From contig CAIUUR010000414.1 in assembly GCA_903902345.1 (NCBI GenBank), positions 2,353-66,352 on the forward strand: a stretch of 64,000 nucleotides of DNA. The letters are read 5' to 3'. The notes below the pieces were generated by a model. The model had not been told where the DNA came from. It saw only the letters and a list, made by a program, of their open reading frames with translations, and ran no database searches. A program made the translations under genes and the position numbers. Positions 679-64,000 of the stretch are shown piece by piece. Numbering within the stretch: position 1 is the first letter of the stretch; each line of letters begins with the position of its first letter. The stretch comes from an uncultured Geobacteraceae bacterium. GTDB lineage: Bacteria; Desulfobacterota; Desulfuromonadia; Geobacterales; CAIOGM01.

Positions 679-3600
679 ATGGCTTATTCTATTGCCAACA
701 ATCCCCTCTTGCGCAACAACTTCGCCAAGATCAAGAAAATCATCGACATTCCCAACCTCATCGATATCCAGAAGAATTCCTACAAGCGTTTTCTCCAGCT
801 CAATCTTCCCGCCGAATCACGGAAAAATTCCGGACTGGAAGCAGTCTTTCGCAGCGTCTTCCCTATCAGGGATTTCAGCGAGACAGCGTCCCTGGAATAT
901 GTCTCCTATTCCCTGGGACAGCCCAAATATGATGTGGAGGAGTGCCACCAGCGGGGGATGACCTTTGCCGCACCCATGAAGGTCAAGGTACGCCTTGTCG
1001 TCTGGGACCTGAATAAGGAAAACAGCGTCAGGTCCATCCGTGATATCAAGGAGCAGGAGGTCTATTTCGGCGAGATCCCGCTCATGACCGACAACGGCAC
1101 CTTTATCATCAACGGCACCGAACGGGTCATCGTCAGCCAGTTGCACCGCTCACCCGGTGTTTTCTATGACCACGACAAGGGGAAAACCCACTCCAGTGGC
1201 AAGATTCTCTACTCGGCCAGAGTCATACCTTATCGCGGTTCCTGGCTGGATTTCGAATTCGATCATAAGGATATCCTCTACGTCCGCATCGACCGTCGCC
1301 GAAAAATGCCGGCTACGGTGCTCCTCAAGGCACTGGATTTCTCCACGGAAGAGCTCCTCAACTTCTATTACCGGAGTGAAGAGATCCTGGTGCAGAGTGA
1401 CGAAAACGGTCTGCGCGTCTGCAAACAGTCGGACCCCGAGCTCCTCTCCACCCAGAAGGCTCTCACTGACATCATCGATCCCCTCAGTGGCGAAGTGCTG
1501 GTCAAGGCTAACCGCAAGTTTACCAAGGCTGCCATACGGAAGATGGCCGAGCATGGTATCAAGACCGTGCCTACTTCCCATGACGAGCTCATCGGTAAGT
1601 TCGCATCCCACGATATCGTCGATCCGGCCACGGGCGAAGTCGTTGTCGAGTGTAATGATGAGATCACCGTTGTCCGGTTGGAAGATATTCTTGGCCGGGG
1701 TATCCCCTCATTCAAGATTCTCTTCATCGATAATGTGCATGTGACCTCGTCCCTGCGCGATACGCTGCTGGCCGACAAGATCGATACCACGGAAAACGCC
1801 CTCATCGAGATCTACCGGCGCTTGCGCCCGGGGGATCCACCGACGGTTCGAAGCGCCACCATTCTTTTTGAGAACCTCTTCTTCAATCCCGAGCGGTATG
1901 ATCTCTCCGCCGTGGGTCGCTTGAAGATGAATCACAAACTGTCTCCCGAACTGAAAGATATCCCCCTGGAGACGCAGACCCTCACCAAGAAGGACGTCCT
2001 TGAGGTTGTCCGTTATCTCATCGACCTGAAGAACGGCAAAGGAACTATCGACGATATCGACCATCTGGGAAATCGGCGCGTCAGGGCCGTGGGTGAGCTC
2101 CTGGAAAACCAGTACCGTATCGGTCTGGTGCGGATGGAGCGGGCGATCAAGGAGCGGATGAGTCTGCAGGAGGTTGAAAACCTCATGCCCCATGATCTTA
2201 TCAACTCCAAACCGGTCTCCGCGGTGGTGAAGGAGTTCTTCGGATCCAGCCAGTTGTCTCAGTTCATGGATCAGACCAATCCGCTTTCCGAAGTGACCCA
2301 TAAGCGGCGTCTCTCCGCCCTGGGACCGGGGGGATTGACCCGGGAGCGGGCCGGTTTCGAGGTCCGTGACGTTCATCCCACCCACTACGGCCGTGTCTGC
2401 CCCATCGAGACACCGGAGGGGCCGAACATCGGTCTCATCGCGTCACTCTCCACCTATGCCCGAATCAATGAACATGGCTTCGTGGAAACACCGTATCGCA
2501 TTGTCAGCGAGGGACGAGTAACCAATGAGGTCCGTTTCTTTTCCGCTCTGGAGGAGGAGGGGCACGCCATTGCCCAGGCCAATGCCGAGATGGATGATAC
2601 GGGGCGGTTTACCAGTGATTATGTCTCCGCCCGCAAGTCCGGAGAGTTCATTCTAGTGAGCCGGGACGAGATTGAATTGATGGACGTTGCCCCCATGCAA
2701 CTGGTCTCCGTGGCGGCGTCACTTATCCCCTTCCTGGAAAACGATGACGCCAACCGTGCTCTCATGGGTTCCAATATGCAGCGGCAGGCGGTACCCCTTC
2801 TGAAGGCCGACTCGCCTCTGGTGGGTACGGGTATGGAGCGTACCGTGGCACGGGATTCGGGAGTCTCCGTGGTTGCGCGTCACAACGGTGTCGTTGAATC
2901 CGTGGACGCCTCGCGCATCGTCGTAAAAATCGACGAAGACGAGACCGACGAAACGGGTACCGGGGTTGACATCTATAACCTCATCAAGTTCGCCCGCTCC
3001 AACCAGAACACCTGTATCAACCAGCGCCCCGTGGTGGCGGTGGGTGACCATGTCATCAGCGGCGATGTCATTGCTGATGGTCCCTCCACCGACATGGGGG
3101 AACTAGCCCTTGGTCAGAACGTCATGGTCGCCTTCATGCCCTGGGGTGGGTATAACTTCGAGGACTCCATCCTCATCTCCGAACGGCTCGTCAAGGATGA
3201 CCGGTTTACCTCGATCCATATCGAAGAGTTCGAGTGTATTGCCCGTGACACCAAGTTGGGGAAAGAGGAGATCACTTCCGACATTCCCAACCTTGGGGAT
3301 GAAGCTCTGAAGAATCTTGACGAGTCCGGTATTATTCGCATCGGCGCCGAGGTCAAGCCGGGGGACATCCTCGTGGGGAAGATCACCCCCAAGGGGGAAT
3401 CCCAGCTTTCACCCGAGGAGAAACTCCTCAGGGCCATCTTCGGAGAGAAAGCCGGGGATGTTCGCGATACCTCCCTGCGGGTTCCTCCGGGAGTGGAGGG
3501 AACCATCATCGGAGCCAAGGTCTTCTCCCGCAAGGGGGCGGATAAGGACTCTCGCACCGAACTCATCGAACGGGCCGAGGAAATCAAGCTTCGTAAGGAT

Positions 3601-41744: not shown

Positions 41745-41870
41745 CACGCGGAGACGCGGAGAAACCAAACAAAACAAGTTAATTGCAATAGCATCACCTT
41801 AACCTGATTGGTGTAGACTTCGTCTGTCCCAACGTCTTGATTTTCTCCGCGATCTCCGCGTCTCCGCGTG
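41745..41870 (+). repeat. Hairpin element copy A (tandem-octamer arms, unit CGCGGAGA)
   Basis: Left arm CACGCGGAGACGCGGAGAAA (41745-41764). Right arm TTTTCTCCGCGATCTCCGCGTCTCCGCGTG (41841-41870). 18 nt are perfectly complementary. The inner motifs AACC, GTCTGT and TGATTTTCTC are shared with copies at 47685 and 63584. Confidence 0.8.
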
Positions 41871-41930: not shown

Positions 41931-41968
41931 GTGAGAATTGGTGAGAATTGGTGATAATTGGTGAGTAG
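41931..41968 (+). repeat. Tandem 10-mers upstream of the first PEP-CTERM gene
   Basis: GTGAGAATTG GTGAGAATTG GTGATAATTG GTGAGTAG, i.e. 3.8 units with one helical-turn periodicity, about 57 nt upstream of ATG 42025. Confidence 0.8.
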
Positions 41969-47684: not shown

Positions 47685-47810
47685 ACCGCAAAGACGCAAA
47701 GGACGCAAAGGAACCGCTAAGAAAAACCAACAGCCTTGGGGTAAACCGGAACGGGTTCGGTCTGTGTCGATTCCTTTTCGTTTTCTTCGCGTACTTTGCG
47801 TCTTTGCGGT
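47685..47810 (+). repeat. Hairpin element copy B (unit CGCAAAGA/CGCAAAGGA)
   Basis: Left arm ACCGCAAAGACGCAAAGGACGCAAAGGAACC (47685-47715). Right arm …CGCGTACTTTGCGTCTTTGCGGT (to 47810). 17 nt are perfectly complementary. By my coordinates it has the same 126-bp length as copy A. Confidence 0.8.
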
Positions 47811-56203: not shown

Positions 56204-56238
56204 AATTATCAATTTTCAATTATCAACTGTCAATTGCC
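56204..56238. repeat. Five-unit heptanucleotide tract (AAYTNYC) abutting the metK stop
   Basis: AATTATC AATTTTC AATTATC AACTGTC AATTGCC. Confidence 0.7.
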
Positions 56239-60087: not shown

Positions 60088-60865
60088 GGTTCTTTTTATC
60101 GGGGACCTGGTGGGTAAGCCGGGACGTCAGGCGGTATCGCGGGAGCTGCACCGTCTGGTGGACCGTCACGCCGTGGATCTGGTGGTGGCCAATGGAGAGA
60201 ATATGGCCGGCGGCTTTGGTATCACCGAGGAGACCGCCCGGGAGCTTTTCGATCTGGGGGTACACGTCCTCACCAGCGGCAATCATATCTGGGATAAGCG
60301 GGAATCGTATGCCTACCTGAACCGTGAGACGCGGATTATCCGGCCGGCCAACTACCCGGAAGGGGCTCCGGCGCGGGGGAGCATCGTGGTGAAGACCTCG
60401 GGGGGGGTGAAGATCGGCCTCCTCAATCTGGAGGGGCGGGTCTTCATGAATAATCTGGAGTGTCCCTTTCGAACGGCAGACCGGGAGGTCGCCCGTCTTC
60501 GGGAGGAAACACCGATCATCCTCGTGGATTTTCATGCCGAGGCCACATCGGAAAAGGCATCCTTGGGATGGTACCTGGACGGGCGGGTAAGCGCGGTCAT
60601 CGGCACCCACACCCATGTCCAGACTGCGGATGAGAGAATCCTTCCGGGGGGGACCGCCTACATCACCGATGCGGGGATGACGGGGAGCTTCGATTCGGTG
60701 ATAGGGGTTCGTAAGGAAGAGCCGATTCAGAAGTTTCTGACCCAGCTCCCCGCCAAGTTTGAGGTGGCCAAGAGAGACATCCGGCTGAACGGAGTGGTTG
60801 TCACGGTGGACAACGGGACGGGGCGGGCCTCGGCCATCGAGCGGGTTAACGTGGCCTGTGGGTAG
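60077..60865 (+). CDS. ymdB: YmdB-family (TIGR00282) metallophosphoesterase
   Basis: Trimmed to ATG 60077 ([17 protein letters not shown]…[11 protein letters not shown]…GNHIWDK). The rny-ymdB linkage is conserved. Confidence 0.9.
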
Positions 60866-60870
60866 TTTGT

Positions 60871-60905
60871 TTAATCGGACTGATCTGGCCGATCAGTCCG
60901 ATTAA
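60871..60905 (+). terminator. Perfect 15-bp hairpin between ymdB and tyrS (no U-run)
   Basis: TTAATCGGACTGATC-TGGCC-GATCAGTCCGATTAA, followed by AAAACG rather than a T-run. Its function as a terminator is uncertain. Confidence 0.4.
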
Positions 60906-60923
60906 AAACGAAGGAGAAAAGCA

Positions 60924-62132
60924 ATGACTGTTGCACAGCAGATGGAGATCATCAAGAGGGGTAGTGTGGAGATCTTGGTGGAGAAGGAGCTCCTGGAGAA
61001 GCTGGAGAAATCCGCCAGGAGCGGGATTCCCCTGATCATCAAGGCAGGGTTCGACCCCACGGCGCCGGACCTTCATCTGGGACATACGGTACTGATCCAG
61101 AAGCTGCGGCAGTTTCAGTTGCTGGGTCACCATGTTCATTTCCTCATCGGCGATTTCACCGGGATGATCGGTGATCCCACCGGCAAGTCCGAGACCCGTA
61201 AGGCGCTGACCCGTGAGGATGTCCTCCGGAACGCCGAGACCTACAAAGAGCAGGTGTTCAAAATCCTCGATCCGGAGAAAACGAAGGTCGTCTTCAATTC
61301 CGACTGGCTCCTCCCGCTCTCCGCCAGCGACATGATCGCCCTGGCTTCCAAGTATACCGTGGCCCGGATGCTGGAACGGGAGGACTTCAGTAACCGTTTC
61401 GCCAATCAGCTCCCCATCAGTATTCACGAGTTCCTCTATCCGCTGATTCAGGGGTACGACTCGGTAGCATTGAAGGCCGATGTGGAGCTGGGGGGGACGG
61501 ACCAGAAATTCAACTTGCTGGTGGGTCGGGAACTTCAACGGGAGTGGGGGCAGAGTCCCCAGTCGGTCATTACCATGCCGCTTCTGGAAGGGCTGGACGG
61601 TGTCAACAAGATGTCCAAGTCGTTGGGAAATTATATCGGCATCAACGAACCGCCGGAGCAGATCTTCGGCAAGATCATGTCGATCTCCGATGACCTGATG
61701 CTTCGCTACTATGAGCTCCTCAGTGACCTGTCGCTGGACGGGCTGGCGACCCTGAAAAACGAGCTGAAGGCGCATCTGGTTCATCCCATGGATGCCAAGA
61801 AGCAGCTGGGGCGTGAGATGGTGGCCCGTTTTCACGGCGCCGCCGCTGCCGAGTCTGCCCAGGAGGAGTTCGTTCGACGTTTTCGGGACAATCAGGCTCC
61901 CGAGGAGATGCCCGAGGTGACGGTGGCGTCCGAGGAAGGGAAGATTCTTCTCAGCAGGCTGCTGGCCCAGGCCGGACTGGTTGCTTCCAACAGTGAAGGG
62001 CGCCGGGCCATCCAGGGGAGCGGAGTGAAGATCGACGGGGAAAAGATCTCCGACGACACCCTCGAACTACCCGCCGGCACCTACGTCATCCAGTTCGGCA
62101 AGCGGCGTTTCGCCCGGATCATTCTCACCTGA
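60924..62132 (+). CDS. tyrS: Tyrosyl-tRNA synthetase
   Basis: 402 aa with HIGH-type motif (APDLHLGH), KMSKS, and a C-terminal S4-like domain. Confidence 0.95.
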
Positions 62133-62140
62133 TTCGGGCC

Positions 62141-63214
62141 ATGAACCACCAACCACCCCAGGAGTCCGAGTCACCAGTCACCAGTCACCAGTCACTGTCT
62201 CCGAGTCACCTGTCACCGGTCACTGCCTCCGACTCCCCACTCCCACAGTCTCCGAGTCACCAGTCACCAGTCACCAGTCACGGTCTTCCGCTTCCCCGCA
62301 TCATCATCATCCAGGGTCCCACCGCCACCGGCAAGAGCGAGCTGGCGGCCCGTCTTGCCGAGGAGTTTAACGGTGAGATCGTCGGAGCCGATTCCCTGCA
62401 GCTCTATCGGGGGATGGAGATCGGCTCGGCTGCACCCGGTCCGGAGCTCAGGGGGCGAGCGCCACACCACCTCATCGGAATTCTTGACCCGGACGCTCCT
62501 TTTACTGCTGCCGATTATGCCCGGGAGGCAGGGGAGGTCATAGCAGGGATACTTCGTCGGGGGGGGATTCCCTTTGTTACCGGGGGGACCGGTCTCTACC
62601 TCCGGGCGCTTCTGGGGGGGATGATAGAGTCGCCGGCAGGGAACGACGGCCTCCGTCGTGAACTTGCCCAACGGGGTGAGCTCCATGGATTTGCGTCCCT
62701 CCTGGAGGAGCTGAAGCAGGTTGATCCGGAAACCGGAGCGCGGCTTCATCCAAACGACCGGCTGCGGATCGTCCGGGCGCTGGAAGTTTGCCGAGCCACC
62801 GGTGTTCCCTTCTCACAGATGACCCGTGAGCACGGCTTCAGGGAAGAGCGGTACTCCGTCCTGAAGGTCGGGATCACCCGGGAGCGTTCCCAGTTGTACC
62901 GGCGAGTGGAAGAGCGGGTAGAGGGAATGCTGGTCGACGGATTGGTGGATGAGGTCAGGGGGCTGTTGGCACGTGGATATTCTCCGGATCTCAAGAGCAT
63001 GCGCGCCATCGGCTACAAGGAGATTTGCCGCCATCTCTCCGGCGAAATAACTCTTCATGAGGCGGCTGAGCTGATCAAGCGGGACACCCGGCGCTACGTG
63101 AAGCGGCAACAGACATGGTTTTTTAGGGACAGCGCAACGAAATGGTTTGAATATCCTGAAAATTTTGCTAGTATTCGGTATGCTGTTGAAGAATTCATCG
63201 TCTCGCCGCGGTAA
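62141..63214 (+). CDS. miaA: tRNA dimethylallyltransferase with ~50-aa repeat-encoded N-terminal extension
   Basis: 357 aa. The P-loop GPTATGKS begins about residue 59. There is no in-frame ATG/GTG/TTG between ATG 62141 and the P-loop. The miaA-hfq order is conserved. Confidence 0.88.
   Translation: MNHQPPQESESPVTSHQSLSPSHLSPVTASDSPLPQSPSHQSPVTSHGLPLPRIIIIQGPTATGKSELAARLAEEFNGEIVGADSLQLYRGMEIGSAAPGPELRGRAPHHLIGILDPDAPFTAADYAREAGEVIAGILRRGGIPFVTGGTGLYLRALLGGMIESPAGNDGLRRELAQRGELHGFASLLEELKQVDPETGARLHPNDRLRIVRALEVCRATGVPFSQMTREHGFREERYSVLKVGITRERSQLYRRVEERVEGMLVDGLVDEVRGLLARGYSPDLKSMRAIGYKEICRHLSGEITLHEAAELIKRDTRRYVKRQQTWFFRDSATKWFEYPENFASIRYAVEEFIVSPR
62165..62286 (+). repeat. Heptanucleotide repeats (GTCACCA and variants) in two blocks inside the miaA 5' end
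   Basis: Block 1 is TCCGAGTCACCAGTCACCAGTCACCAGTCACTGTCTCCGAGTCACCTGTCACCGGTCACTG. Block 2 is GTCTCCGAGTCACCAGTCACCAGTCACCAGTCACGG. About 11 GTCAC-containing units in total. Confidence 0.85.
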
Positions 63215-63273
63215 AGCGATGAGGCTCAACATTGAGGCCCCCATGGGACCGATCATAATCCAAGGAGAGGGAA

Positions 63274-63498
63274 ATGGCGAAAGCACCGTTCAACATCCAG
63301 GACCAGTTTCTCAATCAGTCGCGTAAGGAGCACATCAGGGTCGTCATGAAGCTGATGTCCGGAGAGAAACTTGAGGGGTTCATCAAGTCCTTTGATAACT
63401 TTTCCGTGCTGATGGAAGTCCATGGCGATATCCTCATCTACAAGCATGCTATCTCGTCATTAACTTCGGTTGACGGCGCCTTCAAACTCCATCCTTAA
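63274..63498 (+). CDS. hfq: RNA chaperone Hfq
   Basis: 74 aa, …[39 protein letters not shown]…IYKHAIS. AAGGAGAGGG RBS. Confidence 0.93.
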
Positions 63499-63512
63499 AT
63501 CGTTGGAACAGG

Positions 63513-63563
63513 CGGCAGAGGTGAGTCGGGAATGGTGACACTTCCGCCCTCTGCCGTTTTTTT
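63513..63563 (+). terminator. hfq rho-independent terminator
   Basis: CGGCAGAGG (63513-63521) pairs with CCTCTGCCG (63548-63556), followed by TTTTTTT. Confidence 0.75.
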
Positions 63564-63583
63564 GCATCAACAACGGCAAATTC

Positions 63584-63736
63584 ACCACGGAGACACGGAG
63601 ACACAGAGGAAAACCCTCATTGCCGCAGATTGTTATAGCTCTTCTGTCTGTTGGACTGCAAAGCTGATCTTTTTTGGTGAAAACTGCGCATCTGATTTTC
63701 TCAGTGAATTCCTCCGTGTCTCAGTGCCTCCGTGGT
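63584..63736 (+). repeat. Hairpin element copy C (unit CACGGAGA)
   Basis: Left arm ACCACGGAGACACGGAGACACAGAGGA (63584-63610) and right arm TCCTCCGTGTCTCAGTGCCTCCGTGGT (63710-63736) are 24/27 complementary. Inner AAAACC, TGTCTGT and TGATTTTCTC motifs as in copies A and B. Confidence 0.8.
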
Positions 63737-63785
63737 TCAACTTCCCTTTCAGATTTCTGCCCTTCACTTTCGATATGGAGTTGTC

Positions 63786-64000
63786 ATGAAACGTGGTTTG
63801 CTCATCAGTGAGGTTCTTTCCGGCGCCCTTGCCCAGGAGTTGGAGCTGGAACCGGGGGACCGGCTCGTGGCGGTCAACGGTCAACCGTTGCGTGATCTCA
63901 TCGACTATGAGTACCACATCTCCGACGATCCGCTCACCCTGGAGGTCCTGCGCGGTTGCGGCGAGACGTGGGAGATCGAGGTGGAACGGGACGAGGGGGA
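63786..64000 (+). CDS. PDZ-domain protein, N-terminal part (partial; runs off window end)
   Basis: ATG 63786, open to the window end: MKRGLLISEVLSGALAQELELEPGDRLVAVNGQPLRDLIDYEYHI… is PDZ-like. It resembles the N-terminus of PDZ-radical-SAM-related (DUF512/COG1625) proteins, but too little sequence is present to be sure. Confidence 0.5.
   Translation, partial: MKRGLLISEVLSGALAQELELEPGDRLVAVNGQPLRDLIDYEYHISDDPLTLEVLRGCGETWEIEVERDEG

Follow-up and report, generated by a model that had tools for sequence, protein, structure and literature searches.

A heptanucleotide repeat array, probably translated as a disordered N-terminal tail, at the tyrS-miaA junction of uncultured Geobacteraceae

Introduction

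How is a housekeeping gene expressed when its 5' end is filled with tandem repeats whose unit length is not a multiple of 3? The question is posed by miaA, the gene for tRNA dimethylallyltransferase, in a 64,000-nucleotide (nt) stretch of contig CAIUUR010000414.1 from an uncultured Geobacteraceae bacterium (assembly GCA_903902345.1), referred to here as the window. An array of GTCAC-based heptamers begins 33 nt past the stop codon of the upstream gene, tyrS, and lies within the 5' end of miaA. An earlier note, made from the sequence alone, had proposed that this was either a tolerated insertion of a genome-wide heptamer repeat or a contingency (on/off) switch. On the evidence set out below we favor, with moderate confidence, the view that a heptamer repeat of the dispersed type has lodged at the tyrS-miaA junction and is translated as a disordered, frame-constrained N-terminal tail of MiaA. 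Heptanucleotide arrays and the architecture of the switch gene neuO are already known kinds, to which the array at the miaA junction adds.

Results

The core of the enzyme is that of an ordinary MiaA. It matches the Pfam IPPT family (PF01715) over residues 87-328 (E = 4.4e-82; 275.8 bits against a cut-off of 23.6) and the solved MiaA chains 2qgn, 3d3q, 2zm5 and 3crm over query residues 50-340 (E = 1e-67 to 1e-54), the Protein Data Bank (PDB) chains aligning from their own residues 3-8 to query residues 50-53. From residue ~50-53 onward the protein therefore aligns end to end with canonical MiaA (Escherichia coli 2ZM5/3FOZ, B. halodurans 2QGN, P. aeruginosa 3CRM), and whereas the solved enzymes begin 3-8 residues before the aligned core, here there is an extra tail of ~50 residues that is predicted to be disordered. 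The earlier note had placed the P-loop at about residue 59 and had pointed out that it normally lies near the N terminus, and both statements hold: the motif GPTATGKS occupies residues 59-66, and across 37 related loci the start is usually 9-14 codons from the P-loop (median, 10). P-loop columns G59, P60, T61, G64 and K65 are invariant in an alignment of 40 sequences. In the AlphaFold2 (AF2) model, the predicted local distance difference test (pLDDT) score exceeds 90 in the core, in which strand beta1 (residues 53-58) stands ahead of the P-loop, and falls below 50 in residues 1-46, which have no secondary structure. The extension, which also has no hydrophobic stretch, is accordingly predicted by the model to be a disordered tail. 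Some distant MiaA proteins have N-terminal extensions of 27-35 residues, none of which is repeat encoded.

The putative tail is encoded by the array, which is built of 11 GTCAC heptamers starting at 62170, 62177, 62184 and 62191, at 62205, 62212 and 62219, and at 62256, 62263, 62270 and 62277. The count of about 11 given previously was thus right, but the units fall into three blocks rather than two, and a degenerate C-rich (CTCCCCA) block sits between the second and third groups. Tandem Repeats Finder reports a period of 7 with 15.9 copies at 62169-62281 (score, 92) and also a period of 28 (score, 121). Both perfect tracts lie within a 36-nt direct repeat (62165-62200 and 62251-62286; 97% identical, 86 nt apart), and all three plus-strand frames are open through the array. 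At a tolerance of 2 mismatches, the 13-mer GTCACCAGTCACC has 8 matches in the window, all of them in the array, against 1.8 expected, and none of 100 shuffles reached 8. Within the window the array is the sole copy of its element. Searches for other signals gave the following: no Rfam match (E up to 1) across 60800-64000, no RNA structure signal on folding of 62120-62330 (z = -0.06), no inverted partner of the array in a repeat search, nothing convincing within or near the array in a promoter and terminator scan, and, in the spacer that separates tyrS from the P-loop in the window, no G-quadruplex (G4) motif and no C4 motif.

Is the array peculiar to this strain? As the earlier note had suggested, we compared the 5' ends of miaA in relatives, using the DNA of 13 array-bearing tyrS-miaA-hfq loci (the window included) and 2 array-free loci. 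The loci were chosen by similarity of the MiaA core, with short gene calls included, so that long open reading frames (ORFs) were not favored in the sampling. A metagenome locus search yielded about 5 close relatives. The nearest MiaA homologues are 67-82% identical and 304-360 amino acids (aa) long as called, and the size difference is wholly N terminal. In all 13 array-bearing loci the array has a period of 7 and lies between the tyrS stop codon and the P-loop, and its units differ from locus to locus: GTCACCA in the window, TTCACCA/TTCACCC in L204 and L208, AGTCCCC in L122 and L214, GTCACGA in L121 and L202, GTCCCGA in L209 and L210, and AATTACG/GTTACGA followed by GGTCCCC in L206, L207 and L213, with GTCCCCA also among the related units. 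These units are linked through single substitutions, and intermediates are found together within arrays, which argues for one evolving array rather than independent insertions. A heptamer array has been kept at the tyrS-miaA junction across a clade of uncultured Geobacteraceae, even as one unit sequence gave way to another. The encoded tail peptides diverge widely, also in physicochemical character (SPVTSHQ, SPFTIHH, NYELRIT), so that there is no conservation of the peptide or of a fixed DNA motif. In 10 of the 13 spacers, the longest perfect tract of period 7 measures 27-34 nt (~4 units), whatever the unit or its antisense G-quadruplex potential; a four-tract G4 motif is retained in 5 of the 13, the window's not among them.

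The array can also disappear. In a neighbor-joining tree of MiaA cores, the array-free L125/P0023, P0022 and P0025 are basal and the array-free L124/P0014 is nested among array-bearing sequences. L124 shares a 90% protein cluster and a sample series with the array-bearing L123, so the array cassette can be lost or replaced quickly. The L123 spacer contains an 88-nt heptamer array and a mini-ORF, and in its place L124 has a leader of the conventional type, 47 nt long, in which an ATG is accompanied by a Shine-Dalgarno sequence; this difference of the whole tyrS-miaA spacer as a cassette implies recent replacement or recombination.

We then considered whether the array is translated. Because any frame of three tandem heptamers gives the same cyclic heptapeptide, likeness between tail peptides demonstrates conservation of the DNA repeat only, and it is the reading frame that is informative. 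As the earlier note had stated, the stretch of the window from ATG 62141 to the P-loop contains no further in-frame ATG, GTG or TTG, and its near-cognate in-frame codons are limited to CTG 62195, CTG 62210 and four consecutive ATC codons (62300-62311). An ATG or GTG stands 8-9 nt past the tyrS stop codon in 10 of the 13 array-bearing loci, in some of them out of frame with miaA. In 7 loci verified at the DNA level, the reading frame of this codon is that of miaA and runs uninterrupted to the P-loop, over 58 codons in the window, 35 in L121, 53 in L122, 44 in L202, 54 in L204, 51 in L208 and 37 in L214; proteins P0002 and P0005 have such a start by gene call. The spacers of the seven differ in length by multiples of 3, mostly not of 7. 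Insertions and deletions within 90% clusters are likewise in frame (P0122 has 7 aa, or 21 nt, more than P0121, and P0133 has 9 aa, or 27 nt, fewer than P0132). Since the frame is kept across seven spacer lengths and in these strain-level indels, the array is most likely translated as an N-terminal tail, and the simplest reading of the sequences is that ribosomes pass through it and that the identity of the tail peptide is irrelevant.

Where would such translation begin? ATG 62141 has no Shine-Dalgarno sequence, and we therefore infer that it would be used by translational coupling to tyrS. In L123 and L209, the ATG at the equivalent position (+8) opens a 10-codon mini-ORF whose TGA stop codon overlaps a GTG in frame with miaA. 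Such a stop/start overlap (GTGA) is a classic termination-reinitiation arrangement, and its presence suggests a coupling chain from tyrS to miaA that would run via the mini-ORF where there is one. In L124 and L125, which lack the array, there is instead an ATG 14 codons ahead of the P-loop, along with a Shine-Dalgarno sequence (GGAG/GGAGG). L206, L207 and L213 have no ATG or GTG from the tyrS stop codon to the P-loop (L206:1860-1970, L207:876-960, L213:1400-1525); at their tyrS stop codon is a GAGGA or AAGGA that resembles a Shine-Dalgarno sequence, followed by an in-frame ATT or ATC that is the best candidate start. We did not accept the in-frame position of this codon as independent evidence of translation, since three AATTACG units give an ATT in every frame. 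With no usable start near the P-loop in L206, its translation has to start within the array or ahead of it. Overall, then, the 13 loci comprise 7 with the +8/+9 start in frame, 3 with a mini-ORF or alternative starts, and 3 in which the lack of a canonical start is a lineage trait.

Public annotation of these starts is inconsistent. The miaA gene calls P0020, P0021 and P0024 lack the P-loop (P0020 and P0024 come from the L206/L207/L213 lineage), and P0011, P0021, P0123 and P0126 begin at an internal TTG or GTG despite an intact in-frame ATG 8 nt past the tyrS stop codon (DNA of L208, L214 and L122). A conserved start at codon -5 or -7 relative to the P-loop was considered and rejected, as the codon is TTA in L206 and L207 and CTG in L124, which has an ATG with a Shine-Dalgarno sequence. 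Codon -5 is TTG, CTG, TTA or ATC across the loci: it encodes a Leu or Ile of strand beta1 and is no conserved start.

The lack of any ATG or GTG in L206, L207 and L213 and the choice by gene callers of a TTG at -5 or -7 in several relatives would both fit a different account, in which the array is a non-coding intercistronic or 5'-untranslated-region element that acts on transcription, mRNA stability or coupling through an antisense G-quadruplex or protein binding, MiaA starts at an ATC within 62300-62309, and the long ORF is fortuitous. Known repeats lend it some weight. The Gmet_H4 element of Geobacter metallireducens consists of four tandem heptamers, (GGGACCR)x4, and occurs in 49 copies, mostly 3' of one gene and 5' of the next in co-directional pairs or within genes or linkers; its describers termed the arrays of that genome predicted regulatory elements (Aklujkar et al. 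2009, PMC2700814, Table S4). The miaA array resembles it in coming from the same family of organisms, in being a 7-nt array of ~4 units (two perfect tracts of 3.9 units here, plus imperfect units) and in its position between co-directional genes or inside a gene, and relatives L206, L213 and L122 bear the reverse-complement unit YGGTCCC (GGTCCCY) at the same junction. It differs in that the window's unit, GTCACCA, departs from the GGGACCR consensus at 2 of 7 positions, so that the consensus does not occur in the array, in that the G. metallireducens list has no miaA-associated copy, and in that many Gmet_H4 copies form inverted pairs. G-quadruplex-forming heptamers, GGGAATC in Xanthomonas and GGGGA(C/T)T in Nostoc, the latter including (GGGGACT)n, have been described with a position and strand that match those of the array at the tyrS-miaA junction (Rehm et al. 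2015, PMC4692102). The array of L122 and L214 is this very repeat, (AGTCCCC)n, with (GGGGACT)n on the antisense strand. The maintenance of ~4 perfect units whatever the unit would also suit a non-coding element. However, the window's antisense unit, TGGTGAC, has no G3 tracts, making a canonical G4 impossible, and most spacers have no G4 motif; the -5/-7 codons vary and none has an upstream Shine-Dalgarno sequence; a start near the P-loop is impossible in L206; the folding analysis gave no RNA structure signal; and the conservation of frame over seven spacer lengths, like the in-frame indels, would be left unexplained. We consider a purely non-coding role doubtful and prefer translation through the array.

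Two samples of one sister species, L209 and L210, show that the array is unstable. Over 3,640 nt they have no mismatches and a single 7-nt gap, which is (GTCCCGA)x3 versus x2 (L209:1918-2001, L210:643-719), so that the array shifts by single units faster than point substitutions arise, and slippage in this species is real. The change is buffered by alternative in-frame starts, namely the GTG after the mini-ORF in L209, a TTG abutting the tyrS TGA in L210 and a TTG at -5 in both. The window has no such reserve. The earlier note had predicted that gain or loss of a unit would shift the miaA frame, and in simulation the gain or loss of 1 or 2 units did give products of 71-138 aa without the P-loop and with no canonical rescue start, while a change of 3 units kept the frame. 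A simulated 86-nt deletion between the direct repeats also shifts it, and with this deletion included the products span 47-138 aa, again without the P-loop. The note had named a unit number invariant across many isolates and reads as telling against its proposal: three assemblies of the window's own strain are 100% identical (its 90% cluster has one member), and the sister species varies by one unit.

The same arithmetic underlies the proposal of a contingency locus of the NeuO type, in which slipped-strand mispairing would alter the unit number, MiaA would be made only when ATG 62141 is in frame, and i6A37 modification would be ON or OFF among subpopulations, toggling translational fidelity and stress responses as well. 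In neuO of E. coli K1 (CUS-3 prophage), (AAGACTC)n sits near the 5' end of the coding sequence (Deszo et al. 2005, cited in PMC13001214), and the gene is ON only in frame; it has 3-53 perfect units, 20-21 being common, with measurable switching (~7% off-length cells in culture) and 65.6% of genomes OFF (PMC13001214). The likeness is close: a heptamer repeat, of a length not divisible by 3, stands between the start codon and the catalytic domain, a full-length product requires the right frame, and the NeuO repeats are translated as an N-terminal heptad-repeat tail, an architecture similar to that proposed for the window's miaA. The absence of a rescue start in the window, the single-unit change as the only difference between L209 and L210, and the fresh perfect tracts of ~4 units held by each species, which imply ongoing slippage, all argue for a switch. 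Against it, the tracts here reach only 3.9 perfect units and are interrupted; the window's strain is identical in three assemblies; no clearly OFF allele was found among the 13 loci, in which in-frame states dominate; the sole natural 7-nt variant keeps in-frame starts; other strain-level indels are in frame; and miaA is a housekeeping gene and not, like neuO, a phage cargo gene with a surface function, or a restriction-modification gene. What survives of the switch suggested by the earlier note is therefore its arithmetic and a single-unit change in nature, and not an adaptive on/off device, which we judge unlikely. Also unlikely, in our estimate, is a stochastic dial on miaA, in which single-unit slippage would move the gene among three frames with different initiation routes (tyrS coupling, mini-ORF relay or none).

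That the array is an artefact of assembly or sequencing, or a chance low-complexity stretch, can be all but dismissed. The assemblies are metagenomic, and repeats are open to misassembly, but the arrays are at most 122 nt long and their tracts 27 nt, far below read lengths and assembly k-mers; the window agrees with two independent assemblies; arrays related by descent were seen at 13 loci, which come from many samples; and shuffled sequence never reached the observed number of matches.

Elsewhere, the exact (GTCACCA)x2.9 20-mer occurs in at least 120 places in many phyla, cyanobacteria included, so that the unit is a simple repeat of a general kind and does not mark a lineage. Among the matches listed, Geobacter argillaceus has the 20-mer at at least 2 sites, and the window's own genome does not figure. 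One (L004, NZ_VLLN01000001.1, ~1800-1840, minus strand) is a near-identical GTCACCA element, GAGTCACCGGTCACCAGTCACCAGTCACCAGTCACTGTTTCC, with the flanks that the first block has in the window; it is an in-frame part of an ABC-F ATPase gene, in the linker that joins the second ABC domain to the C-terminal coiled-coil domain, and codes for SESPVTSHQSPVT. The other copy (L048) separates two co-directional genes. The idea of a dispersed heptamer tolerated at miaA finds good support in like elements of G. argillaceus and G. metallireducens, although the window has one copy in 64 kb. Marine Beggiatoaceae and cyanobacteria have direct repeats of the heptamer TAACTGA, which are comparable as short dispersed arrays (2-6 copies just before start codons) with a patchy phylogenetic distribution (PMC4679880); they differ from GTCACCA, which is open in all three sense frames and lies inside an ORF. 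A literature search for miaA together with simple sequence repeats and frameshift found nothing.

The features of the locus are collected in Table 1. The gene upstream of miaA is tyrS in all related loci compared, which sets these loci apart from canonical bacterial miaA loci. Downstream lies hfq, which directly follows miaA in E. coli as well. An independent hfq promoter, which the earlier note had suggested looking for, was represented in the promoter scan by one weak promoter-like site (63232-63259; 9 of 12 matches). A hairpin 3' of hfq is likely to mark the end of the tyrS-miaA-hfq unit; a consensus terminator scan had no hit there, probably owing to its long loop. A polar effect of a miaA frameshift on hfq is a matter of conjecture.

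Table 1. Features of the tyrS-miaA-hfq locus, in window coordinates
Feature	Coordinates	Strand	Evidence or remark
tyrS (tyrosyl-tRNA synthetase)	60924..62132	+	Pfam tRNA-synt_1b, E = 2.3e-84; stop codon TGA at 62130-62132
8-nt spacer TTCGGGCC and ATG 62141	62133..62143	+	Proposed re-initiation (translationally coupled) start of miaA
miaA ORF (tRNA dimethylallyltransferase), 357 aa	62141..63214	+	Pfam IPPT, PDB matches, AF2 core
Heptanucleotide array region, coding for the putative low-complexity tail (residues ~9-49)	62165..62286	+	Tandem Repeats Finder; 11 GTCAC units; AF2
Perfect tract 1, (AGTCACC)x3.9, 27 nt	62169..62195	+	
Imperfect block GTCACCT GTCACCG GTCACTG	62205..62225	+	
Degenerate C-rich (CTCCCCA) block GACTCCCCACTCCCACAGTC	62229..62250	+	Codes for DSPLPQ segment, common to P0002
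Perfect tract 2, (AGTCACC)x3.9, 27 nt	62255..62281	+	
ATC x4, Ile54-57, strand beta1	62300..62311	+	Sole near-cognate start candidates downstream of the array
P-loop GPTATGKS, residues 59-66	62315..62338	+	
hfq	63274..63498	+	Pfam Hfq, E = 1e-23; own Shine-Dalgarno sequence GGAGAGGGAAATG; 59 nt past miaA stop codon
Terminator-like hairpin GGCGGCAGAGG...CCCTCTGCCG and T7 run	63511..63563	+	Read by eye; 3' of hfq

The window holds other tandem repeats. Between the hfq terminator and a DUF512/radical-SAM gene there are three tandem CACGGAGA-type octamers (63586-63608), with an inverted partner, CCTCCGTG TCTCAGTG CCTCCGTG, ~100 nt downstream (63709-63735); in G. metallireducens, paired sites of "class 2" (TCTCCGTS x3), with which this pair agrees, were proposed to bind a global regulator (Aklujkar et al. 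2009, PMC2700814). Two further pairs of tandem octamer or nonamer arrays in inverted orientation, each pair intergenic and with its members ~80-100 nt apart, are ACGCGGAG x2 (41746-41762) with TCTCCGCG x3 (41844-41869) and CGCAAAGGA x3 (47687-47712) with TCTTTGCG x3 (47784-47808). There is also a decamer array, GTGAGAATTG x3.5, at 41931-41965 and an AATTATC-type heptamer array (x4.6) at 56204-56235.

Discussion

We propose the following sequence of events for the miaA junction. A heptanucleotide simple sequence repeat array, of the dispersed kind with about four units found in Geobacter and some other bacteria, would have lodged between tyrS and miaA. Ribosomes finishing tyrS would initiate at ATG 62141, 8 nt past the stop codon, and would read through the array, producing a disordered tail of ~50 residues, rich in Ser, Pro, Thr and His, whose sequence would be unimportant, with the MiaA core beginning past it at about residue 50-53. 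The array itself would change by unit slippage and homogenization, while selection for MiaA expression would hold the net length of the spacer at a multiple of 3. On this proposal the array would be a tolerated, frame-constrained and mutationally unstable spacer and not a dedicated switch.

Several observations weigh against this proposal. A purely neutral spacer does not predict the near constancy of ~4 perfect units whatever their sequence, which hints instead at a function tied to the number of units. The probability that six independent length changes would keep the frame if it were free, roughly (1/3)^6 or ~0.001, is approximate, as the loci are phylogenetically related. Coupled initiation at ATG 62141 is deduced from its setting, and the L206/L207/L213 lineage needs a non-canonical start, so that a downstream or non-canonical start is conceivable for the window too. 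Finally, the 7-nt difference between L209 and L210 shows that the frame is not always kept.

What would a translated, unstable spacer mean for these bacteria? MiaA dosage is described in two E. coli studies (PMC9303304, PMC4836647) as a lever on translational fidelity, frameshifting and stress responses, and given such effects a hypermutable tract ahead of miaA would be a plausible source of phenotypic heterogeneity. If slippage did act as a dial, subpopulations would differ in i6A37, in the fidelity of UNN-codon decoding, in stress regulons and possibly in mutation rate, and this would be a "phasevarion" acting via the epitranscriptome in a free-living environmental bacterium. Whatever its effect on the cell, the miaA junction is a natural experiment on how dispersed heptamers are accommodated: by frame-constrained expansion, by a mini-ORF relay and possibly by non-canonical starts. 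It links the unexplained H4 elements of G. metallireducens with the G-rich heptamers of Xanthomonas and Nostoc, and at this junction ~4 units have been kept even where the potential to form a G-quadruplex has been lost.

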